UHGV virus genome: UHGV-0118819
DNA from: a virus
Length of the DNA: 42,305 nt
Strand: one strand, 5' to 3'
The position numbers and the translations under genes were made by a program. This document shows, piece by piece, positions 10,896 through 42,305 of the stretch (position 1 is the first letter of the stretch; the number at the start of each line of letters is the position of its first letter). The notes under the pieces were generated by a model. That model had not been told where the DNA came from. It worked only from the letters and a program-made list of their open reading frames with translations, and searched no databases.

Positions 10896-10898
10896 AAA

Positions 10899-11405: not shown

Positions 11406-11416
11406 GGAACAGACGA

Positions 11417-12358: not shown

Positions 12359-12368
12359 TAACCAGAAT

Positions 12369-12384: not shown

Positions 12385-12398
12385 TGAAGGAAACTGAA

Positions 12399-14605: not shown

Positions 14606-14608
14606 GCT

Positions 14609-15754: not shown

Positions 15755-15764
15755 GGGGAAGTGA

Positions 15765-16205: not shown

Positions 16206-16208
16206 TAC

Positions 16209-16661: not shown

Positions 16662-16849
16662 CGTTTAACAGCCTGCCGGACGGGCTGTCTTACCTTCTCA
16701 ATCCGGTTGACGCCGGGTTAATTCCTTATACAGCACTTAAAGATGGCTCTGTCGATTTGTACGACATTGCTCTCTTGAATGACCATCTGGCGGTAAAAGC
16801 GGATAACCAGCGGCGCATTGAGAAATGGAGAGAGGATAATGAACGCTGA
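16209..16849 (+). CDS. tail assembly chaperone, frameshift-extended fusion form (G/GT-like)
   Basis: 0-frame 16209 to slippery site joined to -1 frame ...KFFAYTPYQHDAEPATGLTFNSLPDGLSYLLNPVDAGLIPYTALKDGSVDLYDIALLNDHLAVKADNQRRIEKWREDNER*. Confidence 0.5.
16604..16613 (+). promoter_or_regulatory. programmed -1 ribosomal frameshift slippery site
   Basis: CTG GGA AAT TTT TTG: overlapping heptamers G GGA AAT and A AAT TTT; -1 frame stays open for about 80 codons to a TGA at 16847-16849. Confidence 0.55.
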
Positions 16850-18827: not shown

Positions 18828-19414
18828 TGGATATTCTCTCTACACTTTTTCATCAGCAGAGCAGAAAAATAGGAATGATTGTTCCCAGTGTTGTTATTTC
18901 AGAGAAGCATACAGATATGCTTGAAATAACAGAGCATCCGGTAGAGGTTGGGGCCGCTGTCGCTGATCATGCCTATAAAAAACCGTCAGAAGTGGTGATG
19001 GAGGTTGGTTTCGCCGGTGGCGGCGCATTGCTGGATTTTGCCAGTAATCTGACGGCTACCAGCCTGCTCGGCCTGAGTCCTCAGCAGACGTATCAGGAGC
19101 TACTGGATCTGCAGGAAAGCCGTATCCCCTTCGATGTGGTAACCGGTAAACGACTGTACAGCAACATGTTGATCCGGGCGCTGGAAGTGACGACGGACAA
19201 GACAACCGAAAACGTCCTGTCCGCCGTCCTCACCCTGAGGGAGGTCCTTATCTCCCGGACACAGCAGATTACCGTCGCGGATAAAACCAACATGAAGGAA
19301 GGGGCCAGCACGTCGGCGGTACAGAATAGCGGCAACAAAACCACAAAGCCTCCAGATACTTCACTGCTGAAAAGCATCACGGGTAACGTGGCGTCATTAC
19401 TGGGAGGCGGCTAA
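18827..19414 (+). CDS. tail/baseplate protein, hypothetical
   Basis: ORF between tape measure and baseplate genes. Confidence 0.55.
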   Translation: MDILSTLFHQQSRKIGMIVPSVVISEKHTDMLEITEHPVEVGAAVADHAYKKPSEVVMEVGFAGGGALLDFASNLTATSLLGLSPQQTYQELLDLQESRIPFDVVTGKRLYSNMLIRALEVTTDKTTENVLSAVLTLREVLISRTQQITVADKTNMKEGASTSAVQNSGNKTTKPPDTSLLKSITGNVASLLGGG

Positions 19415-19716
19415 TGATAATTCAGGAAATTCCGCTGACAGCGGACAACCAGCAGTTCAGCATCGTCCTGGGTGGTGTCACTTGGCAGATTAGCATCATA
19501 TGGCGCGATCTTTACTGGATTATGGACCTGCAGAACGACAGAGGGGAGCCGGTAATCTCCGGTATTCCTCTCGTCACTGGCGCTGATCTGCTGGCGCAGT
19601 ACGCCTGTATGGGGCTTGGTTTTAAGCTGGTGGTGGTCTGCGATGACAACACACAGGATTATCCCTCGAAAACTGATCTGGGTGGCCGCAGTCATTTACT
19701 GGTATCAACGGAGTAA
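19414..19716 (+). CDS. tail/baseplate protein, hypothetical
   Basis: 100-aa ORF, ATGA-coupled. Confidence 0.55.
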   Translation: MIIQEIPLTADNQQFSIVLGGVTWQISIIWRDLYWIMDLQNDRGEPVISGIPLVTGADLLAQYACMGLGFKLVVVCDDNTQDYPSKTDLGGRSHLLVSTE

Positions 19717-19718
19717 GC

Positions 19719-28810: not shown

Positions 28811-29155
28811 TTAGTCCTTGCGTAACTCGCTAATTCTTCTGTAAGTCTCTGGTGCTTTGTTTCCGTGTATCTTCATTTCAGACTTCAACAGAGCAACGAG
28901 AGAATCCCATTCGTTGAGGATGCCTTTGAATGCCGGAACGCGCTTTGCAACCTTGCCGAATGAATCTCTGATTTCTGGAATCTGCTCAACAAGTGCAACG
29001 CATCGTCGGAAATCTGCTGCGTCATGTGGAGCGCCGAAGTGATGACCATAGATATTCTTTTTCAGGCCACATGCGATTGAGGCAAGAGTTGCGCTACTGA
29101 TGCCGACATCGCCAGTCGATTGCCATTTCAAAACCTTCATAGCCAAATCTGACAT
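28811..29155 (-). CDS. hypothetical protein (114 aa) downstream of an intrinsic terminator
   Basis: ATG at 29155 with GGAGA RBS; ORF-track start 29182 would overlap the terminator. Confidence 0.55.
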   Translation of the reverse strand: MSDLAMKVLKWQSTGDVGISSATLASIACGLKKNIYGHHFGAPHDAADFRRCVALVEQIPEIRDSFGKVAKRVPAFKGILNEWDSLVALLKSEMKIHGNKAPETYRRISELRKD

Positions 29156-29169
29156 TTCTTGTCTCCAAT

Positions 29170-29190
29170 AAAAAACCGCCATCAGGCGGC
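29170..29190 (-). terminator. intrinsic terminator (leftward transcript)
   Basis: Minus strand GCCGCC-TGAT-GGCGG followed by TTTTTT. Confidence 0.6.
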
Positions 29191-29255
29191 TTGGTGTTCT
29201 TTCAGTTCTTCAAATCGAATATTGGTTACATTGTTTTCATATATGAATAAATAAA

Positions 29256-29435
29256 TTAGCTTTTTTCGTTGCCTTCGCGTTCTTTATTAATTTTGACAAA
29301 CTCGTTTTTACCACGCTCTCCAAATGCGTCTTTAGAGTCGTTGTATCCGCAATCGCAGCACACATAATCACCAGACCATCCACGCATTGTTTTTTCTTTT
29401 GCAATATTTCCAGAACCGCATTTTGGACAAGACAT
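29256..29435 (-). CDS. zinc-ribbon protein (59 aa)
   Basis: GGAGG RBS 7 nt before ATG 29435; CPKCGSG...CCDCG two CxxC pairs. Confidence 0.6.
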   Translation of the reverse strand: MSCPKCGSGNIAKEKTMRGWSGDYVCCDCGYNDSKDAFGERGKNEFVKINKEREGNEKS

Positions 29436-29531
29436 ATCACTACCTCCAAAGCATGAGTGAGATGACAACGTAACATTGATTGGAGATTAACAATAGATTG
29501 CTGATGTAAAAGATATGTATAAGCTTCGCTT

Positions 29532-30377
29532 TCAAAGTGGAGGCTCTGGTAGCGTCATCCAGTGTGACGGTTTCCACGACGCACCAGGAATTATCCACCC
29601 ATCATTAGCGTCAGGATGCCCCGGGATGTAAGTCGCCCATTTCATTCGCCAGTCACCTTTCCTGTCAAACTCCACGGCAACAAGAACGGCTGTTTTTGTA
29701 TCCGGCATTCGCTCACTACAGCTTATCCAACCATCCGGAGTTACCGGAGAGTTGCCCGATAGCGCGTTCTGCAGTCGCTCCAGCTTCACGTATTCCTGAA
29801 CCCTGTTTCCGTCGCATGCCTGAAGCCATTGCGCAGCCTTTTGCGCATCAGTGTGAAAGGCACAAGTGCGACCGTCATCAAATTGCATTTCGTAGAGGTC
29901 AGCAACTTGTTCAAACTGCGTATGTTGTGACTTGTAAGTTTGGCTTACAGGTTCGGCACCATGAAGCATGGCGTCGCTCCGCTCTATGCCATCCAGCGCG
30001 ATTCGCAGTGCCTGAATTGTGGTAGAGCTATCGTTTGGGGCTATTCCATATCGCTCGAATACAGCTAAATGGTTGCGCATAATCTCAGGCGTAAGCTCTT
30101 TGTAAGCATAAGCAAGAGGCTCTGATGCATTATCCGGCACAACCGACGCAGGCGCGGCAGCATAAACAGGAATAACGTCCGATTGCTCTTTATTGCTTTC
30201 ATCCGTCAAAGCCCAGAATAATTTTCCGGCCGGATGTTTGAAAATATAAGCAATTGGTTCTGCTTCCAGTGATGCCAGCGCAATTCGTGCAAGTTCCATT
30301 TGTTCGCCACGGGTAAGTACGTTATCGAGCGGATTTTTAATGAATAATTTGATACGTTCTTTGGTTATAGCGCTCAT
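29532..30377 (-). CDS. hypothetical early protein with DUF551-like C-terminal region
   Basis: ATG 30377 coupled to upstream stop; C-terminal PDGWISCSERMPD...WMTLPEPP pattern. Confidence 0.55.
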   Translation of the reverse strand: MSAITKERIKLFIKNPLDNVLTRGEQMELARIALASLEAEPIAYIFKHPAGKLFWALTDESNKEQSDVIPVYAAAPASVVPDNASEPLAYAYKELTPEIMRNHLAVFERYGIAPNDSSTTIQALRIALDGIERSDAMLHGAEPVSQTYKSQHTQFEQVADLYEMQFDDGRTCAFHTDAQKAAQWLQACDGNRVQEYVKLERLQNALSGNSPVTPDGWISCSERMPDTKTAVLVAVEFDRKGDWRMKWATYIPGHPDANDGWIIPGASWKPSHWMTLPEPPL

Positions 30378-30378
30378 A

Positions 30379-30939
30379 TCACTCTCCTTTGATGCGAATG
30401 CCAGCGGCTCGGATAGATTTCCATTGTTTCCACATTCGGTTGAAGTCTGTGCCTGATAAGGTTGCGTTACGGTATCCAGTTTCGGTGCGCAATCCTTCAA
30501 GCGTCGATTTGGAGATACAAATTGAATACATTACCCATGATTCAAACAAATCACGCTCACGGGCTTCGCAACTTTGCTTACTCATCTCTTCGATACGTTC
30601 AGCCATCGCAGCACACTCTTCAAAGTTGCTTAATGCTTTTCGCTCCCATTCGGCGCATTGTTTTCCAAGCTCTGCAATCAGCTTGTCTTTGCCTTCCAGC
30701 TCAACACGCAGCTTCCCTACCGTTAGCGCAATATCCTCGTTCTCCTGATCGCGGCGTTTTATGTATTGCTGGTTTCTTTCCCATTCATCCAACAATGCCA
30801 GCGCGATATCTGGCGAAAAGTGCTTCATAAAATCGTTAAGCGCATTAATTCGCTGATCGAAAGGCATTACAGGTGCTTCACCAGCAATTTTTGTTTTTTC
30901 AGCGATTTCACGAAGCTTTTGATAATCAATCTTGCTCAT
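30379..30939 (-). CDS. Ead/Ea22-like early protein (hypothetical)
   Basis: 186-aa coiled-coil protein in the ea region of the leftward operon. Confidence 0.5.
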   Translation of the reverse strand: MSKIDYQKLREIAEKTKIAGEAPVMPFDQRINALNDFMKHFSPDIALALLDEWERNQQYIKRRDQENEDIALTVGKLRVELEGKDKLIAELGKQCAEWERKALSNFEECAAMAERIEEMSKQSCEARERDLFESWVMYSICISKSTLEGLRTETGYRNATLSGTDFNRMWKQWKSIRAAGIRIKGE

Positions 30940-31493
30940 TGGATGACTCCTTTACGAAGCTGTTCGGCGATATCTTCGAGAACGCCATCAGAGAATGAGC
31001 GATCAAAATCGCCTTCCGGCGCATTAGCCATAAACTCAGTAGAGGTAAGGATCATCCGGGCAATATCCGCGGCGTTCTTCGCAGTATCATCAATAAAACC
31101 AGCTTTCCAGGCTGCCAACATTCTGTTCGCCACAAAATAAGCGCCTTCCTTGCGTGCTTCAGTCTTCCCTTCAGCCAGGAAAGCGTCGGTGGCTGGGGTG
31201 TCTGATTGCAGAGACTTTGCGCGATAGTCATTCCACCCTCTTGCATACATGGGATTAACTTGCACTCCATCTTTTACGCAATATGCCTGCCCTCCACGGT
31301 TGATAACCTCGATTTCGTCCATAGCGCCAGACTTCAGCCCCGCATTCTCCGCTGCCAGCGCCGCGCACTTGGCCTCCGCTTCAGCAAATTTACGCACCAG
31401 ATATTCAGCGTTTGTTTCGTTAACCTTTAAATCTCGTGGGATGCATTTACCTTTCAGAAATCCATCCATCTCAATTAGTGACATTTGTTTCAT
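30936..31493 (-). CDS. hypothetical early protein
   Basis: ATG 31493 coupled (ATGA) to upstream small ORF; ORF-track start 31511 is GTG. Confidence 0.55.
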
Positions 31494-31654
31494 TTCTTCC
31501 CACTCCGCCACATCGCATTCAGATATTTGTTGTCATTAACAGAACCGAAACTCTTTCTCTTAAGCAATTCCTCTCTCGATGGCATTGGCTTTACGCGTTG
31601 GCGAATAATCATTTCTGCCGGAAGAATGCCGGGATTGTATGCAAGTCCTCTCAT
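31490..31654 (-). CDS. small ORF (54 aa), translationally coupled
   Basis: Own translation [54 protein letters not shown]; ATGA overlaps at both ends; below ORF-track threshold. Confidence 0.35.
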
Positions 31655-31932
31655 GATTTACTCTCCACGAACTGGTCAACAGCCATGCTAAGTGACACAC
31701 CTAAAGTCTCGATATGTTGCTGAATATCCTGTAGCGTCTGCGCCTGAGATAACAGGATTTCACGGTTGCATAACTCTTTAACCAGATGCTCAAACTTGCT
31801 GTAATAACCGATACGACTTAGTGTTTCTTTGCCTGCATTCTCGCCTTCTTTGATAATTCCTCTTTCACTAAGAATCAGGTCGTGTTTGGTTCCGGTAATA
31901 ACGTATTTTCCGAGGTCGATGTTTAGATTCAT
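31651..31932 (-). CDS. hypothetical early protein (93 aa)
   Basis: ORF in leftward operon. Confidence 0.55.
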
Positions 31933-31948
31933 TGTTAATTACTCCATG

Positions 31949-32263
31949 TTAATTTATTCGTATGCCTGCTCTTTCTTCATCGAGTTTTTTTAGCTTGTAT
32001 CGCATAGCTCTTACTGAATAAATTGAGCGGCAGGTTGCAATTGCTATTTCTTCTGCTGAGAACTTACCGAAAAGTGATACTTCGGCTCTTGTCCAGCGTC
32101 TTCCACGAAGTCGGCTAACAATGTCAGCGCCAATCCTTGTTGCTTTCGCCATAACTGCTTTTTCAGTCCTTTCCAGTTTTTCAGCAATAACTTCAACTGG
32201 CATTGTCGCCGATACTTCGCGCAAGAAATCTACTTCCCATTTCTCCCATGGAGTCTTTTTCAT
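31949..32263 (-). CDS. hypothetical early protein (104 aa)
   Basis: ORF in leftward operon. Confidence 0.55.
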   Translation of the reverse strand: MKKTPWEKWEVDFLREVSATMPVEVIAEKLERTEKAVMAKATRIGADIVSRLRGRRWTRAEVSLFGKFSAEEIAIATCRSIYSVRAMRYKLKKLDEERAGIRIN

Positions 32264-32274
32264 AGGCGATACCG

Positions 32275-32763
32275 TTATTTGATAAGAAGTGAAGGTTTCC
32301 CAACCTTAAGTTGAGCACCGGGAATATTTATTCCTGCTTTTAGTTGGTGCTTGATTGCCAGTTTGTCGGCTTTAATTGTCGTTTCAAACTCAACGTATTC
32401 AGGAGGAAGGGCGCTTGAGTCGATGATTTCTACAGTTTCTGAGGGTTTGCGGATTGTTACCTGGTGAATACCTGCTCGAATATTTTTCTTGCCAACCATT
32501 TCAAGCGATGACGCTATATATGATTTGATGCTGTCAATCTTATTTTGAATTACTGCGGCTCGCTCATTCAGTGACTTTGCCTCTTCCTTGAGGCGTTCGG
32601 CATAACCAGATTCATTTTTAATGACGGAAAGAAGTTGTTCTATTTTATCGGTAAATTCTCCTTCCATGCCTTCTATTGTGTCAGCAATCATCTCTGGTTC
32701 TAAATCTGAATCCATCAATTTTGCGTATTCATTGGCAATTTCATATAGTTTGCTCACTGGCAA
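32275..32763 (-). CDS. Gp157-like/Gam-like protein associated with RecT (hypothetical)
   Basis: 162-aa ORF immediately downstream of RecT, partially overlapping. Confidence 0.45.
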   Translation of the reverse strand: MPVSKLYEIANEYAKLMDSDLEPEMIADTIEGMEGEFTDKIEQLLSVIKNESGYAERLKEEAKSLNERAAVIQNKIDSIKSYIASSLEMVGKKNIRAGIHQVTIRKPSETVEIIDSSALPPEYVEFETTIKADKLAIKHQLKAGINIPGAQLKVGKPSLLIK

Positions 32764-33652
32764 CCTCCAGTTTCGCTTTGCATTCTATGTAAATGGCTTG
32801 TATGTTCTGCTGCAATTTCATTCCAGATGTCAGGCGATATGCTTCTGCAAAATATCTCTTCAAATCATCCATGTTTTCAGCCTGAGCCATTTCATCACAA
32901 AGAAGTTGTGCTTTATCCGTTATTCCCTGCTGGCGTTTCCGTTCATCTTCGCGGATATCTTCCTCTGATTTGTGCGGCATAACTGGTTCAGTCCATACAC
33001 CTTCTTCTTCGTTTAGTACGTGAATAGCACTATCAAGACGTGATGCCTTAGGCCAATACTTGCTTGCACGCTTTACGACCGTCTTTCGCGCCATCTCATT
33101 CCAGTGATTTACCCATGGTCCTTTATCGCTGAATGCCGCCTTGCTTGTTTTCCTTACAGCCTCAATTTCAGCCAGACTCATCTCTTCCGTTAGATAATCA
33201 CCTGCTGGCGTCTTAACTGTGCAGTAAACACCAACGATATCGCCACGATCACCGAAGGCGTTGTATTTATGGGTTGGTGCTTTATCAAGTCCGTTTGACT
33301 CATAAGTATCGTTAGCATGAACAAGCTTTGCCTGACCCCATGAGATAACACCAGACTCCATTGCAATATGTAGCAATCCCATATAGCTGATATCAAGGCA
33401 CACCATGCCGTCGCGCGGAACCAGATAAGCCAGTTTGCTAGCCGGGTTTAAGGTGATGCCGATCGCCGCAACATTGATGATGGCGTTCTGTGCGCTGGTT
33501 GGATTTGCCAGTGCCGTTTTAGCCAGGTAATCATTTTTCTGGAAATACTGAATTGCAAACTGGCTTTCCTTAGCCCATGTCACCGTCTGTTCAGTCAATG
33601 CTCCGCAGAATAACTGCTCTTGCTGTTTAACGAATTCAACGATATTGCTCAT
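32741..33652 (-). CDS. recT: RecT-family single-strand annealing recombinase
   Basis: 303 aa with LAYLVPRDG and typical RecT core. Confidence 0.85.
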   Translation of the reverse strand: MSNIVEFVKQQEQLFCGALTEQTVTWAKESQFAIQYFQKNDYLAKTALANPTSAQNAIINVAAIGITLNPASKLAYLVPRDGMVCLDISYMGLLHIAMESGVISWGQAKLVHANDTYESNGLDKAPTHKYNAFGDRGDIVGVYCTVKTPAGDYLTEEMSLAEIEAVRKTSKAAFSDKGPWVNHWNEMARKTVVKRASKYWPKASRLDSAIHVLNEEEGVWTEPVMPHKSEEDIREDERKRQQGITDKAQLLCDEMAQAENMDDLKRYFAEAYRLTSGMKLQQNIQAIYIECKAKLEVASEQTI

Positions 33653-33960
33653 GCTGCTTCTCCAAAAATGTGTCTGCGTTTGAATATTGCGAAGGCATAT
33701 TCAGCCTTAACTCTTTCGGTTATTGCATCCCAGAACCATTCAGCGGCTTTTTCCTGATAGTTACAGTCATCATCTTCCAGCCAGTCGATAGCGTCCTTAG
33801 TGTGTTCATCTGGTTTATATGAGCGAAGCATTTCGCTTATTGGGTCGCAACGTTTGCAGAGGCGATCAACTTCACTGTTGATTCGTTCGTAATCTTCATC
33901 AGTAAAACTTGCGATTATTTGCGATATTTCACGCTTATCATTCAGAGTCAGAATCATCAT
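33649..33960 (-). CDS. hypothetical early protein (103 aa)
   Basis: ORF coupled to RecT start. Confidence 0.55.
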   Translation of the reverse strand: MMILTLNDKREISQIIASFTDEDYERINSEVDRLCKRCDPISEMLRSYKPDEHTKDAIDWLEDDDCNYQEKAAEWFWDAITERVKAEYAFAIFKRRHIFGEAA

Positions 33961-34041
33961 CTTTCTCCTGTTCTTTGTGCTGATTGAGCATTTTGTTCAT
34001 CTGACGAATGAACTCTTCGTCTGACCAGTTATCTGTAAAAC

Positions 34042-34194
34042 TCATTTCCTGCGATACCACGGAAGATTGATAGCTGATTTCATCGCTTTATTTGCTTCAA
34101 GCCACATTTTTGAATCACCAATAAATCTGGCTATTACTGCTTTGTTCTGTGCAGCACGAAGCATCTGGTGATTGATGGCTATTTCATTGCGCAT
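34042..34194 (-). CDS. Kil-like small protein (50 aa), tentative
   Basis: Own translation MRNEIAINHQMLRAAQNKAVIARFIGDSKMWLEANKAMKSAINLPWYRRK with GGAGG RBS; position after cIII and FIGD..KM motif recall lambda Kil. Confidence 0.4.
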   Translation of the reverse strand: MRNEIAINHQMLRAAQNKAVIARFIGDSKMWLEANKAMKSAINLPWYRRK

Positions 34195-34313
34195 AACGCC
34201 TCCAGTTGTTTCTTTGCTGCTCTGATTAATTGTTTAACTCGGCGTGATAATTCAGATTCGTGCGGGTAGAAAGCGGACATGACGCCGCTACCCGCGAGCT
34301 GAAAGTGCATCAT
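34179..34313 (-). CDS. cIII: CIII-like protein (protease inhibitor protecting CII)
   Basis: 44 aa from MMHFQLAGSGVMSAFYPHESELSRRVKQLIRAAKKQLEAL; resembles lambda CIII amphipathic helix; AAGGAG RBS. Confidence 0.7.
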   Translation of the reverse strand: MMHFQLAGSGVMSAFYPHESELSRRVKQLIRAAKKQLEALCAMK

Positions 34314-34377
34314 GGGTAACTCCTTATATTTGATTGCATAACGAAAACGCCTCTCGTGAAGCGTTATTGGTATGCAT

Positions 34378-34403
34378 ATAAAAAAGCCCTCACACTGGAG
34401 GGC
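34378..34403 (-). terminator. intrinsic terminator (tL1-like) upstream of cIII
   Basis: Minus strand GCCCTC-CAGTGT-GAGGGC followed by TTTTTTAT. Confidence 0.6.
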
Positions 34404-34465
34404 AAAGAAGATTTCCAATAATCAGAACAAGTCGACTCCTGTTTAGTTACGAGCGACATTGCTCC

Positions 34466-34493
34466 GTGTATTCACTCGTTGGAATGAATACAC
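34466..34493 (-). promoter_or_regulatory. perfect 9-bp stem hairpin just after the 156-aa gene
   Basis: GTGTATTCA-(10 nt loop)-TGAATACAC. Confidence 0.45.
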
Positions 34494-34507
34494 AGTGCTT
34501 ACTCGTA

Positions 34508-34978
34508 CTAATAAAATACCCAATTTTCTGTTTCTTGGTTGTGCCCAAAGTTATATTCAATATCTGGTGTTGATGTATCAATATTCTTCATCCCATCAAC
34601 AAGAGTTGATACAACAGCCAAATCTTGTTTGATTCTCATTAAATGGTATTTCTTCCGGCGCAATAAACTTTCAATGGCAAGTTTCTTCGTTGGGAATGCA
34701 AAAGATCTTTCTGCATTTTTTGCTACTTTCTTAATTGCATATCTATTTCTCCTTTGTTTCCATTCCTGTAACCACTGATTTGGTGCTGGTTTAAAATTAA
34801 CAATCCAATGCGCAGGAACCAACCATGCATAATGCTCTGTCTGATGAAAAGCTATATATTGAAGTGCGAATATTTTGATCCCATCTTCTTCAACTGTCGC
34901 CTGGAATCTCCAGAAAACAGGCATTCCATCATGTTCAGTTTCTGATTCAGGAAAAGGTACGCTCCATGATTTTGTCAT
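34508..34978 (-). CDS. hypothetical AT-rich protein (156 aa) in N-cIII interval (moron candidate)
   Basis: ORF between N-proximal gene and terminator; composition visibly more AT-rich than neighbours. Confidence 0.6.
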   Translation of the reverse strand: MTKSWSVPFPESETEHDGMPVFWRFQATVEEDGIKIFALQYIAFHQTEHYAWLVPAHWIVNFKPAPNQWLQEWKQRRNRYAIKKVAKNAERSFAFPTKKLAIESLLRRKKYHLMRIKQDLAVVSTLVDGMKNIDTSTPDIEYNFGHNQETENWVFY

Positions 34979-35040
34979 ATCTCACCTCAAATAAGTGGCT
35001 TGCTGCCAAAACAATGAACCATCCGGAAATTCCAGATAGT

Positions 35041-35268
35041 TCATAATTCACTCTTCAATACTTCCAACTTACTAATCGCCGATAGATATCCGCGCTGATA
35101 GGGCATCATCATTCCTTCGAGCTTGCCACTTCTTAACTCCTCCCTGAGCAATTGTATTGCTTGATCAATAACCTCTGCCTTAGCGTCCTTTATGGATTGC
35201 TTTCGGGGCTTTGCTTTCTGCTTTGGCAGATTTCTCAAGCATGATGGAATGTATGTCTGATTCATCAC
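35041..35268 (-). CDS. hypothetical small basic protein (75 aa)
   Basis: ORF directly downstream of N. Confidence 0.5.
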   Translation of the reverse strand: MMNQTYIPSCLRNLPKQKAKPRKQSIKDAKAEVIDQAIQLLREELRSGKLEGMMMPYQRGYLSAISKLEVLKSEL

Positions 35269-35541
35269 TTACCTCGCTGTCAGTTGTTTTGATTTCCGGT
35301 AGCCTGCCGCGTAAATGGCTACGTTTGGCAGGCAAATACTTCCACTGCATTCATCTGCCTTCTTGCAGCGAAGGCTTCCGAGTGATGCTGCTTTGTCTGC
35401 TCTGACGCAACCAGAGAGCTTTAGCGCAATTTTTCGTGCCAGTCGCTGCTCTTGCATTGCCTGTTCACGTTGAGCCTGTCTGCGTGCTCTGCGGCGATTT
35501 CTGGCGTTATCGTCAGCCAGATATGTAATGACTACTGTCAT
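35269..35541 (-). CDS. N: N-like antitermination protein
   Basis: 90 aa; arginine-rich motif DNARNRRRARRQAQREQ near N-terminus; first gene after nutL. Confidence 0.75.
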   Translation of the reverse strand: MTVVITYLADDNARNRRRARRQAQREQAMQEQRLARKIALKLSGCVRADKAASLGSLRCKKADECSGSICLPNVAIYAAGYRKSKQLTAR

Positions 35542-35649
35542 GTTGACCTCCGATGATTGACTTTGGCGGTGACGCGCCGGGTGCTTATCTTCCGGTTGCC
35601 GTCGTGCAGCTGCACTTCACGTCACCCCAAAGCCAACTACTCTTTGGTT

Positions 35650-35689
35650 CCCGCATTTCGGCGGGACAATCCCATCAATGTTAAAGAGC
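35650..35689 (-). promoter_or_regulatory. nutL (boxA + boxB)
   Basis: Minus strand GCTCTTTAACA, 13-nt spacer, boxB hairpin CCCGC-CGAAAT-GCGGG; identical to nutR. Confidence 0.7.
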
Positions 35690-35735
35690 CTGCCAATCTG
35701 TTCCGTTTGGCTACCAGCGTCCTGCTGATGGCTAA

Positions 35736-35764
35736 AGAATACTGTAGGTATTTTATTGTGTAAA
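35736..35764 (-). promoter_or_regulatory. candidate pL promoter
   Basis: Minus strand TTTACA - 17 bp - TATTCT overlapping OL operators; -10 context shared with pR. Confidence 0.4.
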
Positions 35765-35823
35765 TACCCAAGGTATTTATTTTTGGTGAAATAATGATAA
35801 GCAAATGAATACAAAGGATATTT
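35737..35823. promoter_or_regulatory. OL operators (17-bp partial palindromes, 2 clear + 1 weaker)
   Basis: GAATACTGTAGGTATTT (35737-35753), AAATACCCAAGGTATTT (35762-35778), GAATACAAAGGATATTT (35807-35823); consensus RAATACY-N3-RGTATTY. Confidence 0.55.
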
Positions 35824-35909
35824 ATTTTTTTCGGTGTCTGCTTGTTCAGTGCTTTTTATGCGGGATATGTGAAGTGGATCCCGATAGCTATTGCTGCCGG
35901 GATTATGGG

Positions 35910-36299
35910 TTAGTCAGCGAAGGTTAAGACGAGAATTACCTTAATGATGTCTGCTACAACAGACACGGCCATAGATAAACCAAAGACAATCCAAGCCATA
36001 GAGATGTCTTCACTACCATCGTATAGAGTTCCGTAATCACTGGTGTAAGGCGTAAATGTCGCGCCTTGATACAATAGGTATAAGCTTGATCCATAGAGGA
36101 TAAATGCAGATATCCCTTGTATTGCCATGATCACCAGAATCATGAAACGAGCTGATCTATGCGCCCAAGCCTGGCTTATTTTTTCTGATAGAGATTTCGC
36201 AATAAAAGCATGCGCTAAGCCGTAAATTGTCGAGATTGCCAACATCCCAAAAAAGCTTGCTATAGCGGTTCCAACCATAAGCGCCCCTTGCGTGATCAA
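35910..36299 (-). CDS. small multi-pass membrane protein co-transcribed with cI (rex-slot moron candidate)
   Basis: 129 aa with about 4 hydrophobic segments; TTG start overlapping cI stop (alternative ATG 21 nt downstream); ends just before OL. Confidence 0.65.
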   Translation of the reverse strand: MITQGALMVGTAIASFFGMLAISTIYGLAHAFIAKSLSEKISQAWAHRSARFMILVIMAIQGISAFILYGSSLYLLYQGATFTPYTSDYGTLYDGSEDISMAWIVFGLSMAVSVVADIIKVILVLTFAD

Positions 36300-37012
36300 A
36301 CCAGCCTTAGTTTTGTCTCAATTGCAACGCCTATAATCTTGCAGTTTCCATTGATTGGCACGAGAGGCCATGCAGGGTTAAGTCCCTTGAGGTATTTATT
36401 TCCGCCGTCGATTATCAGCTTCTTGAATGTTGCTTCGTTAGAGTCAGAAAGTTTTGCTATGACCAAGCTGCCGTTGATCGCCTCCCTTCCGGTATCGAAA
36501 AGAACGAATGTTCCCTCTGGAATGCTTAACCCAACCGGTGCCGTCATTGAATCACCTTCCACTTTAAGCCAAAACGCATTACCTTGAATATGCGCGTCAG
36601 ACTCAAGCCAAACATCTATGTCTTTAATGGTGTATGGTTCGCATGCTTCACACCACGAGCCAGCCTGGATACTGCTTAACACCGGATACCTCTTTCCTGC
36701 TCTGTATTCCCCTGCATACCTTACGTTGGCATCGCTCTTAAGGCTTTCTGCCTGTTCTGCAACCTTGGCAGCAATTGACTGGCTAAAATCAGCAATTGAG
36801 ACTTGCAACAATCGTGCAAAACCAGATGCAACCTCAACGTTTAGCGCATTTCTGCCATTAAGATAATGCCCTACCGCTCCTTGGGTGATACCCAGTTCAT
36901 CAGCGATTGAGTATTGGGTTATTCCCAATTCTTTCTTTTTTGACTCATACAAAGCCTTAAGCCGCTTAGCGTCTTCCAGCTGTTCTGTCGTCAGTGATTT
37001 TTTATTTTCCAT
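36296..37012 (-). CDS. cI: CI repressor (HTH + S24 autoprotease domain)
   Basis: 238 aa; N-terminal HTH LGITQYSIADELGITQGAVGHYLNG; C-terminal GDSM...K LexA-like motif. Confidence 0.9.
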   Translation of the reverse strand: MENKKSLTTEQLEDAKRLKALYESKKKELGITQYSIADELGITQGAVGHYLNGRNALNVEVASGFARLLQVSIADFSQSIAAKVAEQAESLKSDANVRYAGEYRAGKRYPVLSSIQAGSWCEACEPYTIKDIDVWLESDAHIQGNAFWLKVEGDSMTAPVGLSIPEGTFVLFDTGREAINGSLVIAKLSDSNEATFKKLIIDGGNKYLKGLNPAWPLVPINGNCKIIGVAIETKLRLV

Positions 37013-37046
37013 AGCTTAATTCTAATAGCTAAGGTACTTAAACTAA

Positions 37047-37088
37047 AAATACCCTGAGTATTGATTGCTTTGAATACCTGTAGTATTC
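37047..37088. promoter_or_regulatory. OR operators (two 17-bp sites)
   Basis: AAATACCCTGAGTATTG (37047-37063) and GAATACCTGTAGTATTC (37072-37088), same half-sites as OL. Confidence 0.55.
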
Positions 37089-37089
37089 T
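37061..37089 (+). promoter_or_regulatory. candidate pR promoter
   Basis: TTGATT (37061-66) - 17 bp - TATTCT (37084-89), overlapping OR2. Confidence 0.4.
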
Positions 37090-37118
37090 TTATTCATGGT
37101 TAATAACGGAGAGTGCAT

Positions 37119-37313
37119 ATGATTCGAATGACACTTGCCGATTACGCCAAAATCCATGGACAGGCTAAAGCAGCCAGTGACTTTGGTGTAATCCAGTGCG
37201 CTATCAGCAAGGCCATTCTGGCAGGCCGTAACATCATGGTTACGGTAAAGCCTGATGGCAGTGTGATTGGAGAGGAAGTTCGTCCTTTCCCAAGCAACAA
37301 GAAAAACAAATAG
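37119..37313 (+). CDS. cro: Cro repressor
   Basis: 64 aa [64 protein letters not shown]; close to recalled lambda Cro; GGAGAG RBS. Confidence 0.9.
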
Positions 37314-37319
37314 TAACAC

Positions 37320-37362
37320 CGCTCTTTAACAGTCATGGTCATCATTCCCGCCGAAATGCGGG
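37320..37362 (+). promoter_or_regulatory. nutR (boxA + boxB)
   Basis: CGCTCTTTAACA then CCCGC-CGAAAT-GCGGG hairpin, 7 nt after cro stop. Confidence 0.7.
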
Positions 37363-37370
37363 AATACAAC

Positions 37371-37388
37371 GCGCATAAGTTGATGCGC
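37371..37388 (+). terminator. tR1-like hairpin
   Basis: GCGCAT-AAGTTG-ATGCGC followed by a weak T-rich tail. Confidence 0.35.
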
Positions 37389-37421
37389 ATAACTTCTTAT
37401 TTGTTAAGGAAATACTTACAT

Positions 37422-37700
37422 ATGCAACTTACAAGTACTCGCAAGAAAGCGAATGCAATTACAAGCAACATCCTGAATCGAATTGCTGTACGTGGTCAGC
37501 GAAAGGTTGCCGACGCGTTAGGGATTAATGAATCGCAAATTTCGCGATGGAAAGACAGCTTCATCCCCAAAATGGGAATGCTTCTGGCTGTTCTTGAATG
37601 GGGTGTTGAAGACGAGGAGTTGGCGGAACTGGCTAAGAAAGTAGCCAGAATGCTGACAAAAGAAAAAGCCCCGAAGAACGGCGAATTCTTCGAGGCCTGA
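37422..37700 (+). CDS. cII: CII-like transcriptional activator
   Basis: 92 aa from ATG 37422 (AAGGA RBS); core ESQISRWKDSFIPKMGMLLAVLEWGVEDEELAELAKKVARMLT close to recalled lambda CII. Confidence 0.8.
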   Translation: MQLTSTRKKANAITSNILNRIAVRGQRKVADALGINESQISRWKDSFIPKMGMLLAVLEWGVEDEELAELAKKVARMLTKEKAPKNGEFFEA

Positions 37701-37734
37701 TGTAGAAAGACTGGATCAATCCACAGGAGTCATT

Positions 37735-37896
37735 ATGACAAAACGTCGTAAGAAATACCAGGAAAAAGAAGAGATTCGACACCCTGATTCACCTGAGGGA
37801 TTAGTGGTAGCCGCAGCAAATAACAGGGCGTTCGCAGAGCGCCTTGTTGGTGTTTACAGACTAGCCAAAGCAGGAGTGAAACATGGGCGTCGTTAA
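37735..37896 (+). CDS. small basic ORF (53 aa) between cII and O
   Basis: Own translation MTKRRKKYQEKEEIRHPDSPEGLVVAAANNRAFAERLVGVYRLAKAGVKHGRR; AGGAG RBS; below ORF-track threshold. Confidence 0.35.
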   Translation: MTKRRKKYQEKEEIRHPDSPEGLVVAAANNRAFAERLVGVYRLAKAGVKHGRR

Positions 37897-37945
37897 GTTA
37901 GCTGATTACAGGCATAACCCTGTACAACATCAGGAGGCATCCAGT

Positions 37946-38773
37946 ATGGGGTATGTCTCTATACACCGCCAGTTTATGGACAGCAGGCTCTATAAGGACT
38001 CTCAGGCAGTACATCTTTGGCTTCACTTAATCCTCAAGGCTAATCACGAATCTACTGTCGTCAATACGGATATCGGTCCGATAACTGTTGATCGCGGTCA
38101 GATGATAACTGGACGCCCGTCGCTGGTCAGAGAAACATTCATCCCCGACAACAAAGTTCGGAGCTTATTACGGACTTTTGAGTCGAAAGGGATGCTTAAT
38201 ATTTGCTCGATGGGGAAGAAATTTAGCCTGTTTACAATCGTTAAATATGACGATTTTCAGGCAAAAAATTGTCCAACGGTTGTCCAACGGTTGTCCAACG
38301 CAAACACCAGTAATGGCGCTGCTCTCAGCGGAGATTGTCCAACGGTTGTCCAACGATTGTCCATAAACAATAATATAAATAATATCTCTAATACTGACGT
38401 ATTAGAGAGTGCCACAGCAGACAAAAAGTCTGACAAGAAAAAACCTTCCGTCAGCTGTCAGGATGTTGTCGATGCTTACCACGAAATCCTTCCTGAAGCG
38501 CCAAGAATCCGCGCACTGAATGACAAGCGTAAAAACCAGATCCGAACGTTCTGGCGCAAAGCCGGAGTGATAACCCGCCAGCTTGACGGGCATGGGTTCA
38601 CGATGCAGGACTGGAGAAATTATTTGAGCTACGTAGGCGAAAATTGCCGATGGATGTTCGAAGAACGCCCAAACCATCAACGCGGAACCGTCTGGCACAA
38701 AAAGGGATTTGATTTCCTGCTTAACGACAATACCTACCTGAAAGTTCGTGAGGGTGAACACGATGACCGATAA
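37946..38773 (+). CDS. replication initiator (O-like) containing origin iterons
   Basis: ATG 37946 with AGGAGG RBS (ORF-track start 37883); iteron DNA translated as NCPTVVQRLSN...DCPTVVQRLSINNN. Confidence 0.7.
   Translation: MGYVSIHRQFMDSRLYKDSQAVHLWLHLILKANHESTVVNTDIGPITVDRGQMITGRPSLVRETFIPDNKVRSLLRTFESKGMLNICSMGKKFSLFTIVKYDDFQAKNCPTVVQRLSNANTSNGAALSGDCPTVVQRLSINNNINNISNTDVLESATADKKSDKKKPSVSCQDVVDAYHEILPEAPRIRALNDKRKNQIRTFWRKAGVITRQLDGHGFTMQDWRNYLSYVGENCRWMFEERPNHQRGTVWHKKGFDFLLNDNTYLKVREGEHDDR
38269..38410. repeat. origin of replication: six 11-bp iterons (TTGTCCAACGG) in two clusters plus AT-rich region
   Basis: Iterons at 38269-38301 and 38335-38367 followed by AATAATATAAATAATATCTCTAATA. 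Confidence 0.65.
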
Positions 38774-40199
38774 TTTTTATGCGCCGCCCCATAGCATCGA
38801 GGCAGAGCAGGCGGTGATTGGTGGATTGCTTCTGGATGATGACAGCAGTGAGCGCGTCCAGAAAGTTCTGGCGATGCTGAAGCCTGATTCATTTTACAGT
38901 CGACCACACAAAATCCTTTTCGAAGAAATAACCAGAATGCACCGTGAGCAAAAGCCAGTAGATGGCCTGACGCTTTTCGATGAACTGGAGCGTAAATCGT
39001 TAACGGCGTCTGTTGGCGGTTTTGCTTATATCGCTGAGATCGCAAAGAACACGCCAAGCGCAGCAAACATCGTTGCCTATGCAATGCAGGTTCGTGAAAC
39101 CGCAATGGAACGCTACGCCATCAACCGCATGACTGAAGCGACGGAATTGCTCTATTCCCGCAACGGAATGACTGCAACGCAGAAGTACGAAGCTATTCAG
39201 GCGATTTTCACGCAACTGACAGACCATGCAAAAACCGGATCGCGTCGCGGCCTTCGCTCATTTGGTGAGGTCATGGAAGACTGGGTTAGCGACCTTGAGA
39301 AGCGATTTGACCCGTCAGGCGAACAACGAGGAATGAGCACAGGGATCCCATCGCTGGACAGGATGCTGTCACCGAAAGGTCTGGTGAAAGGCTCTCTGTT
39401 TGTCATTGGCGCTCGCCCTAAGATGGGGAAAACGACGCTATACAGCCAGATGGCAATCAACTGCGCAGTGCATGAGAAAAAGCCCGCTCTGATGTTCAGC
39501 CTTGAAATGCCAGGTGATCAGATACTGGAAAAACTGGTAGGACAGAAGTCAGGTGTTAACCCGAATATTTTTTACCTTCCGGCGACAAATGACGCTGATG
39601 ACGGCTATCAGGGTGATTACGATGGTGACTTCAATAGGGCGATCGAAACAGCCAATCGCTTGAGTGAAATCGACCTGCTTTACATCGACGACACGCCGGG
39701 ATTATCTCTGGCTCAAATCGTCAGCGAAAGCCGTCGAATCAAGCGAGAAAAAGGATGTGTTGGGATGATTCTGGTCGATTACCTGACACTAATGGCCGCT
39801 GAGAAGGCCGATCGTAACGACCTTGCTTACGGCATGATCACCAAAGGACTGAAGAACCTTGCCAAAGAGCTTGATTGCGTTGTTGTGCTTCTGACGCAGC
39901 TTAACCGCGCACTGGAAAGCCGAACCAATAAACGCCCATTACCAAGTGACTCACGAGATACAGGGCAGATTGAACAGGATTGCGATTATTGGGTTGGGAT
40001 CCATCGTGAAGGTGCTTTTGATGACAGTGTTCCACCTGGTGAAACCGAACTAATCCTTCGTCTCAATCGTCATGGCAATACCGGTACGGTGTATTGCATT
40101 CAGGCAAATGGCGCTATTTATGACACAGACCAACAGTCTGCTGAAATTCGCCGCCGTGAACGCGAGGAACCGCAGTCCAAGAAGAAAGGAGGATTCTGA
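38763..40199 (+). CDS. replicative DNA helicase (DnaB-like)
   Basis: 478 aa from ATG 38763; Walker A GARPKMGKTT; DnaB-like N-terminal IEAEQAVIGGLLLD. Confidence 0.9.
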   Translation: MTDNFYAPPHSIEAEQAVIGGLLLDDDSSERVQKVLAMLKPDSFYSRPHKILFEEITRMHREQKPVDGLTLFDELERKSLTASVGGFAYIAEIAKNTPSAANIVAYAMQVRETAMERYAINRMTEATELLYSRNGMTATQKYEAIQAIFTQLTDHAKTGSRRGLRSFGEVMEDWVSDLEKRFDPSGEQRGMSTGIPSLDRMLSPKGLVKGSLFVIGARPKMGKTTLYSQMAINCAVHEKKPALMFSLEMPGDQILEKLVGQKSGVNPNIFYLPATNDADDGYQGDYDGDFNRAIETANRLSEIDLLYIDDTPGLSLAQIVSESRRIKREKGCVGMILVDYLTLMAAEKADRNDLAYGMITKGLKNLAKELDCVVVLLTQLNRALESRTNKRPLPSDSRDTGQIEQDCDYWVGIHREGAFDDSVPPGETELILRLNRHGNTGTVYCIQANGAIYDTDQQSAEIRRREREEPQSKKKGGF

Positions 40200-40227
40200 T
40201 GACCATCTACATCACTGAGCTAATAAC

Positions 40228-40257
40228 AGGCCTGCTGGTAATCGCAGGCCTTTTTAT
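40228..40257 (+). terminator. intrinsic terminator after helicase gene
   Basis: AGGCCTGC-(8 nt loop)-GCAGGCCT followed by TTTTTATTT. Confidence 0.7.
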
Positions 40258-40274
40258 TTGGTGGAGGGTAAATC

Positions 40275-40481
40275 GTGGCTGAGTTAATTTTCTCTGCATT
40301 GAGGCTTCTCGGTGCTATGTGGATGGTGGCGACGTTCATTGTGGTTGTCGGAAGTTTTGTCCGGTTGATAGGCGAAGGTAAAGACCTGGTGGGTGTGCTG
40401 TTCGGTAGCATTCTCCTGTGGGTGATTATCGGTGTTATGCCTGTCGCTGTAGCAAAAATGGCGTGGCGTTTTGTGAGTTGA
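40275..40481 (+). CDS. small two-pass membrane protein (68 aa)
   Basis: GTG start with GGAGGG RBS just after the terminator; two hydrophobic segments. Confidence 0.55.
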   Translation: MAELIFSALRLLGAMWMVATFIVVVGSFVRLIGEGKDLVGVLFGSILLWVIIGVMPVAVAKMAWRFVS

Positions 40482-40498
40482 ACTGAGGGTAAGTATCG

Positions 40499-40765
40499 AT
40501 GGACGAATCAAGAAAGCAGTTTGAAGAATGGTTTGAAAATTACACCGGATGTGATCCTAAAAATAAAATATACGCCAATATGGTTGAGATGTATTGGCAA
40601 GCGTGGCAGGCATCGCGAGCAGCTATCGAGATTGAGTGTTCTGGAGAAAGAGAGCGTGAGGCATTTTCTACCGATTTCGAGGATGGGGTTACATTTGGTT
40701 ATAACAACGCAATTAGTGAATGCGAAGGACGGATTCGCGCTGCTGGAGTCAAAGTGAAGGAGTGA
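40499..40765 (+). CDS. hypothetical nin-region protein (88 aa)
   Basis: ORF in nin region. Confidence 0.6.
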   Translation: MDESRKQFEEWFENYTGCDPKNKIYANMVEMYWQAWQASRAAIEIECSGEREREAFSTDFEDGVTFGYNNAISECEGRIRAAGVKVKE

Positions 40766-40769
40766 GTAT

Positions 40770-41024
40770 ATGCCATTTATAAAATTAACCATGCAATGCA
40801 GCATCTATCAGCCACCAAGCACAGGCGTGATAGAAAGCACCAGAAGTGCATATGAGCCCTTGTACGTTAACTCTGACAACATCGAAACCCTATTTGATGC
40901 CGGATTTACGATTGTAAGAATGGCAAGTGGTGAGCGGTTCGATGTTATTGAGAAACCAGAAGCTATTTTGGCGTTAATTAATCCATGCGTGCAGAAGGTG
41001 AGCCATGAGGAAACTAACGTTTGA
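40770..41024 (+). CDS. hypothetical nin-region protein (84 aa)
   Basis: ORF in nin region. Confidence 0.6.
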   Translation: MPFIKLTMQCSIYQPPSTGVIESTRSAYEPLYVNSDNIETLFDAGFTIVRMASGERFDVIEKPEAILALINPCVQKVSHEETNV

Positions 41025-41445
41025 ACTAAGAAGCCCCATTCATCAGCAGAACGCCATTCAAGCTATCCAGCAAATCCTTCCAGACCCAACCACACCAATC
41101 GTAGTAACCATTCAGGAACGCAACCGCAGCTTAGACCAAAACAGGAAGCTATGGGCCTGCTTAGGTGACGTCTCTCGTCAGGTTGAATGGCATGGTCGCT
41201 GGCTGGATGCAGAAAGCTGGAAGTGTGTGTTTACCGCAGCATTAAAGCAGCAGGATGTTGTTCCTAACCTTGCCGGGAATGGCTTTGTGGTAATAGGCCA
41301 GTCAACCAGCAGGATGCGTGTAGGCGAATTTGCGGAGCTATTAGAGCTTATACAGGCATTCGGTACAGAGCGTGGCGTTAAGTGGTCAGACGAAGCGAGA
41401 CTGGCTCTGGAGTGGAAAGCGAGATGGGGAGGTCGGGCTGCATGA
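41005..41445 (+). CDS. ninB: NinB (Orf) recombination mediator
   Basis: 146 aa MRKLTFELRSPIHQQNAIQAIQQILPDPTTPIVVTIQERNRSLDQNRKLWACLGDVSRQVEWHGRWLD... nearly identical to recalled lambda NinB. Confidence 0.9.
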   Translation: MRKLTFELRSPIHQQNAIQAIQQILPDPTTPIVVTIQERNRSLDQNRKLWACLGDVSRQVEWHGRWLDAESWKCVFTAALKQQDVVPNLAGNGFVVIGQSTSRMRVGEFAELLELIQAFGTERGVKWSDEARLALEWKARWGGRAA

Positions 41446-42287
41446 TAAATGTCGTTAGTTTCTCCGGTGGCAGGACGTCAGCATATTTGCTCTGGCTAAT
41501 GGAGCAAAAGCGACAGGCTGGTGAAGACGTGCATTACGTTTTCATGGATACAGGGGCAGAGCACCCTAAAACATATGAGTTCATCCGAAATATCGTCAGT
41601 AACTGGAAAATAGACTTACATTGCCTTCGTGTAATACCTAATCCAGAAATGGGGAAGGCCAGTAGTTATGAAGAGATAGGTGTCACTGATATTGGTCCAG
41701 ATCTTATACCGTGGAAAAGGATGTTGAATAAATACGGACATCCATATATCGGCGGTGCGTTCTGTACCGACAGAATGAAGTCTGTTCCATTCACCAAATA
41801 TTGTCAGGAAAAGTTTGGGAAAGGAAATTACATCACATGGCTTGGCATTCGCACAGATGAACCAAACAGGCTTAAAAGGGCTAATGGTTTTCGGTACCTG
41901 GCTGATATAAGCGATTTTGAAAAACAGGATGTGCTTGATTGGTGGAGTGGGCAGAAGTTTGATCTTGGCATACAGGAGCATCTTGGTAATTGTGTTTTCT
42001 GTATAAAAAAAAGTATGCAAAAGGTTGCGCTGGCAGCCATGGATGAACCAGAACTTGCAGATGCATTTATCAACATCCTTGATACAGAAATAAAAACAGG
42101 AAAGGAACCGGTTATGTATCGAGGGAATAATACACTTAAATCACTGATTGCCTTGTTTAGTGATATATCAAGAGATGAGTTAGCCTCAAGAATGACATCA
42201 ATGCGACAGTATGATTCAGGTTCGTGTTCTGAATCATGTGAAGCATTTTCATGTCAGCTTGGATTTTATTTTGAGGATGCGGCATGA
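41442..42287 (+). CDS. ninC: NinC-like protein, PAPS-reductase/PP-loop family
   Basis: 281 aa from ATG 41442 (ATGA overlap with ninB); MINVVSFSGGRTSAY PP-loop (SGG) motif. Confidence 0.85.
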   Translation: MINVVSFSGGRTSAYLLWLMEQKRQAGEDVHYVFMDTGAEHPKTYEFIRNIVSNWKIDLHCLRVIPNPEMGKASSYEEIGVTDIGPDLIPWKRMLNKYGHPYIGGAFCTDRMKSVPFTKYCQEKFGKGNYITWLGIRTDEPNRLKRANGFRYLADISDFEKQDVLDWWSGQKFDLGIQEHLGNCVFCIKKSMQKVALAAMDEPELADAFINILDTEIKTGKEPVMYRGNNTLKSLIALFSDISRDELASRMTSMRQYDSGSCSESCEAFSCQLGFYFEDAA

Positions 42288-42305
42288 GACGACAGCGACG
42301 AAGTA
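42284..42305 (+). CDS. ninE: NinE-like protein, N-terminal 7 codons (continues at position 1)
   Basis: ATG 42284 overlapping ninC stop; MRRQRRS then in-frame continuation across the window junction. Confidence 0.6.

Follow-up and report, generated by a model that had tools for sequence, protein, structure and literature searches.

Ends of a metagenomic lambdoid phage genome abut within ninE, pointing to a circular map opened by linearization

The window, i.e., the whole 42,305-nt stretch of DNA that was analyzed, is in all probability (roughly 0.93) exactly one unit length of the genome of a complete temperate lambdoid phage, which was not integrated (attP), was closed by a metagenome assembler, and was linearized inside the ninE gene. 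The original prediction held that the sequence behaves as a circular or replicative-form genome rather than as a prophage with host flanks. The circular reading is supported by the exact abutment of the two ends, by a 55-nt terminal repeat in the source contig, and by the presence of attP. The split of ninE is an ordinary bookkeeping effect of linearization, and it involves no new biology.

In silico joining of the last 22 nt of the window (positions 42284 to 42305, plus strand; ATGAGACGACAGCGACGAAGTA) to positions 1 to 155 (plus strand) generated an open reading frame (ORF) extending from ATG to TGA and comprising 58 codons plus the stop codon, located at positions 153 to 155. The terminal segment contributes codons 1 to 7 and the first base of codon 8, and its ATG shares the tetranucleotide ATGA (42284 to 42287) with the TGA stop codon of the preceding ninC-like gene. 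The remaining 155 nt, TGA included, open the window, and the first 55 of these nucleotides (1 to 55) recur at the 3′ end of the source contig. A GAGGA Shine-Dalgarno motif was read directly in the sequence 6 nt upstream of the ATG. The translated ORF matched the Pfam NinE family (PF05322) over model positions 1 to 58 of 58 with a score of 148 bits (E value of 7e-44), the gathering score of this family being 25. It was identical at all 58 positions (100%) to the RefSeq "NinE family protein" WP_001254255.1 from Escherichia coli PM4-5 and at 54 of 58 positions (93%) to NinE of phage lambda. Judging from this match, which far exceeds the chance level, the 58-aa frame cannot be a chance ORF, and both the family score and the location in the nin region assign the gene as ninE. 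Joining, translation, and the Pfam search thus confirm that the terminal 22 nt and positions 1 to 155 form, in frame, a 58-aa NinE-like ORF, as had been proposed. ninE is listed among the nonessential genes of lambda (PMC10695390).

The window was also proposed to open and close within the nin region, and nin genes were indeed found on both sides of the junction. Before the window end, ninB (41005 to 41445, plus strand), encoding a recombination mediator, precedes the last complete gene, which encodes a 281-aa NinC-like protein of the PAPS reductase family (41442 to 42287, plus strand; 57% identity with lambda NinC). Past the window start, the first complete gene is ninX (158 to 517, plus strand; P22 NinX family), followed by a 58-aa ninF-like ORF (517 to 693, plus strand), which owes its name to its position and to its homology to the annotated NinF of PM4-5. 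The nin chain continues on the plus strand with genes encoding a YbcO family protein (955 to 1245), RusA (1242 to 1604), and NinH (1601 to 1789) and ends with the gene for antiterminator Q (1786 to 2274). Overlaps between stop and start codons, typical of the lambda nin region, link these genes without a break through the junction (stop/start positions 41445/41442, 42287/42284, 517/517, 693/686, 955/955, 1245/1242, 1604/1601, and 1789/1786). The gene order of the end-joined window is that annotated in PM4-5, namely, NinB, PAPS reductase family, NinE, NinX, NinF, hypothetical protein, DUF1364 (YbcO), RusA, NinH, and Q, and annotated prophages and lambda likewise place NinE in the nin region. 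Comparison with the nin region of lambda revealed the same succession of ninB, a ninC-like gene, ninE, ninF, ninH, and Q, interrupted by other genes between ninE and ninF and between ninF and ninH, and the same type of overlapping start and stop codons. Unlike lambda, the phage studied here carries neither ninD nor ninI, harbors an inserted P22-type ninX and an inserted 89-aa ORF, has YbcO and RusA in place of ninG, and encodes a Q of the PF06530 type. The nin region of lambda is reported to be dispensable for plaque formation (PMC10695390). On the actual molecule, ninE would be an uninterrupted, ordinary gene of the delayed-early rightward operon (cro-cII-replication-nin-Q), which the overlapping stop and start codons would tie to its neighbors.

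Alignment with the prophage of PM4-5 positioned the two ends of the window relative to each other. Positions 41001 to 42305 aligned with positions 1461 to 2765 of the PM4-5 locus (L002), and positions 1 to 1790 aligned with positions 2766 to 4572. Since positions 2765 and 2766 are consecutive in PM4-5, bases 42305 and 1 of the window are adjacent, without any missing or duplicated base. A 53-nt string spanning the junction was found verbatim in six IMG/VR viral contigs, and alignment of these six contigs with the rotated window produced single high-scoring segment pairs extending over the junction (e.g., 99.55% identity over 1,559 nt and 97.6% over 1,994 nt). The NinC-like, NinE, NinX, and NinF genes are contiguous in independent genomes, with 94 to 99.6% identity over 1.5 to 3 kb. 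Three independent lines, i.e., the PM4-5 alignment, the IMG/VR contigs, and the stop/start chain, argue that the two ends belong together.

An exact look-up with the NinC-like protein retrieved a single contig, NODE_636_length_42360_cov_4.314785, from the ENA metagenome assembly ERZ651882. Positions 31442 to 42305 of this contig and of the window, which have the same coordinates, were compared and displayed 0 mismatches (10,864 nt). The contig begins at base 1 of the window, and its start recurs at its end as a 55-nt direct repeat, the extra 55 nt (contig positions 42306 to 42360) being an exact copy of window positions 1 to 55. The length of the window (42,305 nt) is that of the contig (42,360 nt) minus 55 nt, and the window is the contig minus one copy of the repeat. 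The format of the contig name (NODE_x_length_y_cov_z) and a final k of 55 are SPAdes conventions. A single occurrence of the 55-mer, on one strand, was found in the window, within which no 40-mer is repeated. The source assembly was inspected for host DNA adjoining the window ends, as the original prediction had suggested: just the 55-nt copy of positions 1 to 55 lies beyond position 42305, and no host DNA was found at either end of the source contig or in the window. According to the CheckV paper, direct terminal repeats measuring 55, 77, and 99 bp match the k-mer lengths used by assemblers, and circular templates are cut by assemblers at a random location, leaving a terminal repeat (PMC8116208). 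Contigs of the direct terminal repeat (DTR) type are defined by a repeat that measures 20 bp or more and is present at their two ends, in comparison to 55 nt in the present case. Such a repeat is further expected neither to be of low complexity nor to recur elsewhere in the contig, with which the 55-mer agrees. The contig resembles CheckV DTR contigs by the k-mer length of its repeat, by its origin in an ENA ERZ-type metagenome assembly, by a genome size consistent with that of relatives, and by a break position unrelated to phage biology; there is no substantive difference, one repeat copy having been trimmed from the window. The size of 42.3 kb compares with ~41.6 kb from core to core in a related prophage of strain PSS-04, each module being present once. 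At the sequence level, the contig thus displays the features of a complete viral genome of the DTR type. The 55-mer at the break was found as an exact match in 9 of 15 other ninE-carrying loci and with at most two mismatches in all 15, lambda included. In the source annotation of the contig, ninE is reduced to a NinE stub of 25 residues at the end of the contig. Circular closure is deduced from the 55-nt overlap made by the assembler, at a coverage of only ~4.3×.

The window was further proposed to contain an internal attP, rather than attL or attR, adjoining the integrase gene. This was borne out by a three-way comparison of attP, attL, and attR and by ARAGORN, which detected no complete tRNA at this site. 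The gene encoding the tyrosine integrase (27336 to 28496, minus strand; PF00589, E value of 1.3e-35) lies next to a 46-nt core (27276 to 27321, plus strand), which is identical to the 3′ part of the E. coli tRNA-Thr gene thrW, corresponding to its last 46 nt in strains ET650, PSS-04, and C1. Chromosomal matches to the int region end at window position 27276, inside this tRNA-Thr gene, which is located next to proA. To the left of the core, the P arm (26944 to 27275) corresponds to the phage DNA found beside the core at attR in integrated relatives, and a single base distinguishes the window from the phage arm of attR in C1 and PSS-04. To the right, the P′ arm (27322 to 27390) shows no difference from the phage DNA at attL of strain ET650. 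Outside the phage DNA, the chromosomes of C1, PSS-04, and ET650 continue with the 5′ half of thrW at one border and with host sequence at the opposite border; IS1 and ykgL are found downstream of attR in C1. Since both arms of the P-O-P′ site are of phage origin, the window contains an intact attP, and the site has, by its sequence, the features of a tRNA-targeting attP. TTTGTG(A/C)CAT repeats are present on both arms, at positions 27161 and 27202 (P) and 27379 (P′), the copy at position 27379 of the P′ arm being TTTGTGCCAT, and a 20-nt repeat is present at positions 27151 and 27369. The arrangement of the TTTGTG(A/C)CAT repeats is as expected for arm-type integrase sites, to which binding is putative. 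The string formed by the P arm and the core was found in 44 IMG/VR contigs, which are taken to include the sequenced free phages mEpX2, HK542, and HK75. One IMG/VR contig, 643692022_000008, is a different phage that has only ~600 nt around att in common with the window. The thrW locus of PSS-04 is occupied by a prophage of this architecture, which is bounded by two copies of the core ~41.6 kb apart and has ninE in its interior; the window would resemble this prophage after integration. The integration site is thrW, next to proA, and the host group is likely to be E. coli or close relatives.

Rotation of the map to the junction gives the succession ninE, ninX, ninF, the 89-aa ORF, YbcO, RusA, ninH, Q, tRNA genes, holin, endolysin, Rz, Rha, and TerS. 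The two phage-borne tRNA genes, tRNA-Asn (2366 to 2440, plus strand) and tRNA-Thr(TGT) (2446 to 2521, plus strand), lie between Q and the lysis genes, and an Rfam search detected nothing besides these two tRNAs. The lysis cassette (2764 to 3992, plus strand) comprises the genes for a holin (2764 to 3087), an endolysin (3071 to 3547), and an Rz-type spanin, the latter ending at position 3992. The following genes, also on the plus strand, encode TerS (Terminase_2; 5393 to 5944), TerL (5947 to 7569), the portal protein (7569 to 9035), and a Mu F-like head morphogenesis protein (8842 to 9660). After these come the scaffold and capsid genes and those for the sheath, tube, tape measure, baseplate, and tail fiber, which form a head and contractile-tail module (9675 to 26715, plus strand) including the genes for the major capsid protein (11417 to 12358), the sheath (14609 to 15754), the tape measure protein (16818 to 18827), baseplate protein J (23446 to 24645), the tail fiber (25304 to 26350), and the tail fiber assembly protein (26347 to 26715). 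A truncated invertase remnant is located between the latter gene and attP. Beyond the integrase gene, the minus strand carries a gene for an excisionase-like HTH_17 protein (28373 to 28720) and the early-left operon (28811 to 35541), which includes genes for DUF551, Ead/Ea22, and Gp157 in addition to those for RecT (32741 to 33652), Kil (34042 to 34194), CIII (34179 to 34313), and N (35269 to 35541). cI (36296 to 37012, minus strand) is followed on the plus strand by cro (37119 to 37313), cII (37422 to 37700), and the genes for the replication initiator (37883 to 38773) and a DnaB-type helicase (38763 to 40199). The lambdoid modules are each present once and in canonical order. No host gene was found among the annotated ORFs or in alignments to related phages and prophages, and no plasmid partition or replication family was found in the scanned proteins (a subset of the ORFs) or in the precomputed annotation of positions 31442 to 42360.

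Several forms of phage DNA could have given rise to such a map. TerL had no match in Pfam and belongs to PHROG 2; only its C-terminal (nuclease) half matched solved terminases, namely, 8dkr (E value of 9e-33) and 4idh (E value of 7e-28), the latter being Sf6 gp2 (large terminase). The Pfam family Terminase_2, to which TerS belongs, is of the SPP1 G1P type. Sf6 is a headful packager (PMC5630979). The terminase of the phage studied here may be of the headful type, as hinted at by the similarity of TerL, which is confined to its C-terminal part, by the family of TerS, and by the presence of the Mu F-like head protein. With such a terminase, circularly permuted virion DNA would be plausible: headful packaging would generate circularly permuted, terminally redundant virion DNA, which would assemble to a circle. 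Induced cells containing excised monomer circles or replication concatemers would likewise yield a circular assembly. The sampled DNA may accordingly have consisted of excised or replicating circles or concatemers, of circularly permuted and terminally redundant virion DNA, or of both. The record shows a circular map, which is compatible with a covalently closed circle, a concatemer, or circularly permuted virion DNA; whichever form was sampled, the map is circular and its opening point arbitrary.

Four other explanations for the structure of the window were considered. Excerption of a prophage segment from a bacterial chromosome, with host DNA located just past the window ends, could be envisaged since close relatives of every module are integrated in E. 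coli chromosomes; the probability of this explanation is negligible, because the source contig continues beyond the window with only the 55-nt repeat of its own start, because the att site is internal and of the P-O-P′ type, and because, in integrated relatives, host DNA adjoins the att ends and ninE is centrally located in the prophage. Assignment of the element to prophages with host flanks was rejected, as neither host genes nor attL or attR are present at its ends. A tandem, head-to-tail double lysogen at thrW would re-create an attP-like site, and its repeat could collapse into a cycle in the assembly graph. Tandem prophages at thrW do exist, as the related prophage of PSS-04 and a second prophage adjoin each other at one common copy of the core, and a chromosomal match in strain E10 (H57) spans the attP region in one piece. 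In a dilysogen, however, reads from attL and attR at half the phage depth would create branches, and the contig would normally break at the core, whereas the observed contig is unbroken through attP and has no host sequence attached anywhere. We therefore regard a double lysogen as very unlikely.

False circularization deserves equally little credence. In such a chimera, the 55-mers at the contig ends would originate from two co-occurring lambdoid phages, the part ending with ninB and the ninC-like gene and the part starting with ninX and ninF belonging to different molecules. The near invariance of the 55-mer among lambdoid phages, the match of the surrounding nin region to 2,252 of 5,426 E. 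coli genomes, and the low coverage (4.3×) would favor such an event. Against it, the contig is made up solely of the lambdoid modules, each in exactly one copy, the NinC-like/NinE/NinX/NinF arrangement is contiguous in independent genomes, and the chimera would need to end by coincidence at exactly one genome length. It is extremely unlikely that the window ends are the physical termini of virion DNA or that the phage is a plasmid-like extrachromosomal prophage, even though similar phage circles have been deposited as "plasmids" (e.g., NZ_CP141750.1): it would be unusual for termini to lie within a coding gene, ~5 kb ahead of the terminase genes, and the overlap has the length of a standard assembler k-mer. 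The presence of int, an xis-like gene, and attP and the lack of plasmid partition or replication families among the proteins scanned and in the annotation of positions 31442 to 42360 argue against a plasmid-like element.

Under the preferred reading, i.e., a closed and nonintegrated phage genome, a de Bruijn graph assembler would have recovered a circular path and written it as a linear sequence with the first 55 nt repeated at the end (k = 55). One copy of the repeat would have been trimmed at a later step, and the remaining string would open 22 nt into ninE. The break may have been introduced in ninE at random or because other lambdoid phages in the sample have this k-mer in common with the phage studied here. 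With a second lambdoid phage present, the 55-mer would be a shared node of the graph and a natural cut point of the cycle. The record should be treated as circular, and analysis of its "ends" is meaningless; gene callers applied to the linear string miss ninE or report it in truncated form. The window also provides a checkable example of how a closed phage genome is distinguished from a prophage excerpt by the abutment of its ends, a repeat of k-mer length, and an internal P-O-P′ att site.

Searches of collections of phages, plasmids, and complete E. coli genomes identified no record covering at least 80% of any window segment queried, the best coverage in these collections being 68% of positions 1 to 25000 at 95.6% identity. 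In the phage collection, most of the structural region was covered by four vB_EcoM-* records and Salmonella phage SEN34 only. Phages vB_EcoM-606R2, -611R5, and -689R2 share the terminase-to-baseplate genes at 95.6% identity and SEN34 at 83%, these phages covering 65 to 68% of positions 1 to 25000; they differ from the window in the early and nin regions, the tip of the tail fiber, and the int-attP module. A TerL protein identical to that of the window was found in lambdoid prophages, in a total of 201 blocks of the assembly collection; none of these is the source, the best loci displaying 99.9% identity in the structural genes only. An exact-protein look-up with the tail fiber returned no match. 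The thrW-integrating coliphages mEpX2, HK542, and HK75 are 97 to 98% identical to the window in the integrase gene, the xis-like gene, and the attP region. In contrast, what they have in common with the window is confined to the early, immunity, and replication half, amounting to at most 48% of positions 25001 to 42305, and their virion modules differ, none of the three being among the matches to the structural genes of the window. The phage appears to be a new mosaic of familiar modules. The odds are about even for the broader proposal of a previously unsequenced mosaic, combining lambda/HK-type early, immunity, and replication functions and a thrW-specific integrase with a contractile tail of the vB_EcoM-606R2/SEN34 type and a YafO-like toxin moron, that was caught in the microbiome mainly in excised, replicating, or virion form, i.e., actively induced in situ instead of lying dormant. 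The split ninE remains an assembly artifact even if this proposal holds.

Two replicons deposited separately from host chromosomes resemble the window in carrying the same integrase and an internal, intact attP, namely, NZ_CP141750.1 ("plasmid unnamed4," a 47,948-bp circle) and NZ_LT599830.1 ("phage_14408_1," a separate replicon of 41,305 bp). Host flanks are absent from the inspected region of both records. They differ from the window in being other phages, with a tailspike gene or other tail genes beside att, and in originating from isolate assemblies rather than from a metagenome.

The thrW integrase of the window and an uninterrupted attP are present together in two deposited records, the circular 47.9-kb NZ_CP141750.1, deposited as 'plasmid unnamed4', and NZ_LT599830.1, a 41.3-kb record named 'phage_14408_1'. 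Neither is likely to be a plasmid; both probably represent phage genomes that have been excised. The public gene call at the source contig's end (L068 10843-10917) is a 25-residue NinE fragment, for which the Pfam match is no more than 'weak'. Thus, the linear representation of this genome already degrades the annotation of ninE, a gene of 58 codons.

Direct repeats of the form TTTGTG(A/C)CAT flank the thrW core on both sides (27151-27170, 27202-27211, and 27369-27388), and an extended form of the motif, TTGTGCCGTATTTGTG(A/C)CAT, occurs in two copies. These repeats are candidate arm-type binding sites of the integrase. The P arm of attP also holds an imperfect palindrome of 23 nt (27071-27122). 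In E. coli PSS-04 (NZ_AP027666.1), thrW is occupied by two different prophages in tandem (seen at L003 2312-3490 and 45076-45151), one of which is related to the window. A second tyrosine integrase (~80% similar), which belongs to the other lambdoid prophage, is located directly after the attR core of the related prophage. Since this attR core adjoins the integrase of the other prophage, the junction mimics a hybrid attP.

The nin region of the window differs from that of lambda at several points (41442-42287 and 158-517). The NinC-like protein of the PAPS reductase family (41442-42287) shares only 57% identity with its lambda counterpart, NinC, and ninD is absent. Unlike in lambda, a P22-type ninX gene (158-517) is inserted 3′ of ninE, and the slot of lambda ninG is filled by YbcO and RusA. 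Farther downstream, the phage-borne genes for tRNA-Asn(GTT) and tRNA-Thr(TGT) (2366-2521) are located between Q and the holin gene, and this pair is also found in the PSS-04 prophage. The slot between the lysis cassette and terS, which in the window holds the gene for an ORF11CD3-domain regulator of the Rha family (4155-4709), is occupied by other genes in relatives, namely, an HNH endonuclease gene in PSS-04 and genes for KilA-N or gp49-like proteins in others.

Immediately 3′ of the tail-fibre assembly gene, a 67-codon remnant of a serine recombinase or DNA invertase (26703-26906) encodes the C-terminal HTH_7 domain (E = 1.4e-12) as the sole part of the recombinase, both the catalytic domain and the start codon being missing from the remnant. 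A 'recombinase family protein' pseudogene is present at the matching position in the PSS-04 relative. The remnant is probably a relic of a tail-fibre switching cassette of the Gin/Cin/Pin type.

Midway through the baseplate cluster lie two genes (21302-22298), one encoding a 192-residue protein (phrog_35514) and the other a 138-residue protein. For the latter, the counterparts from related prophages (WP_023565512.1 in PSS-04 and a second strain, C1) carry the annotation 'type II toxin-antitoxin system YafO family toxin'. The YafO-like gene looks like a toxin-type moron conserved within the tail module.
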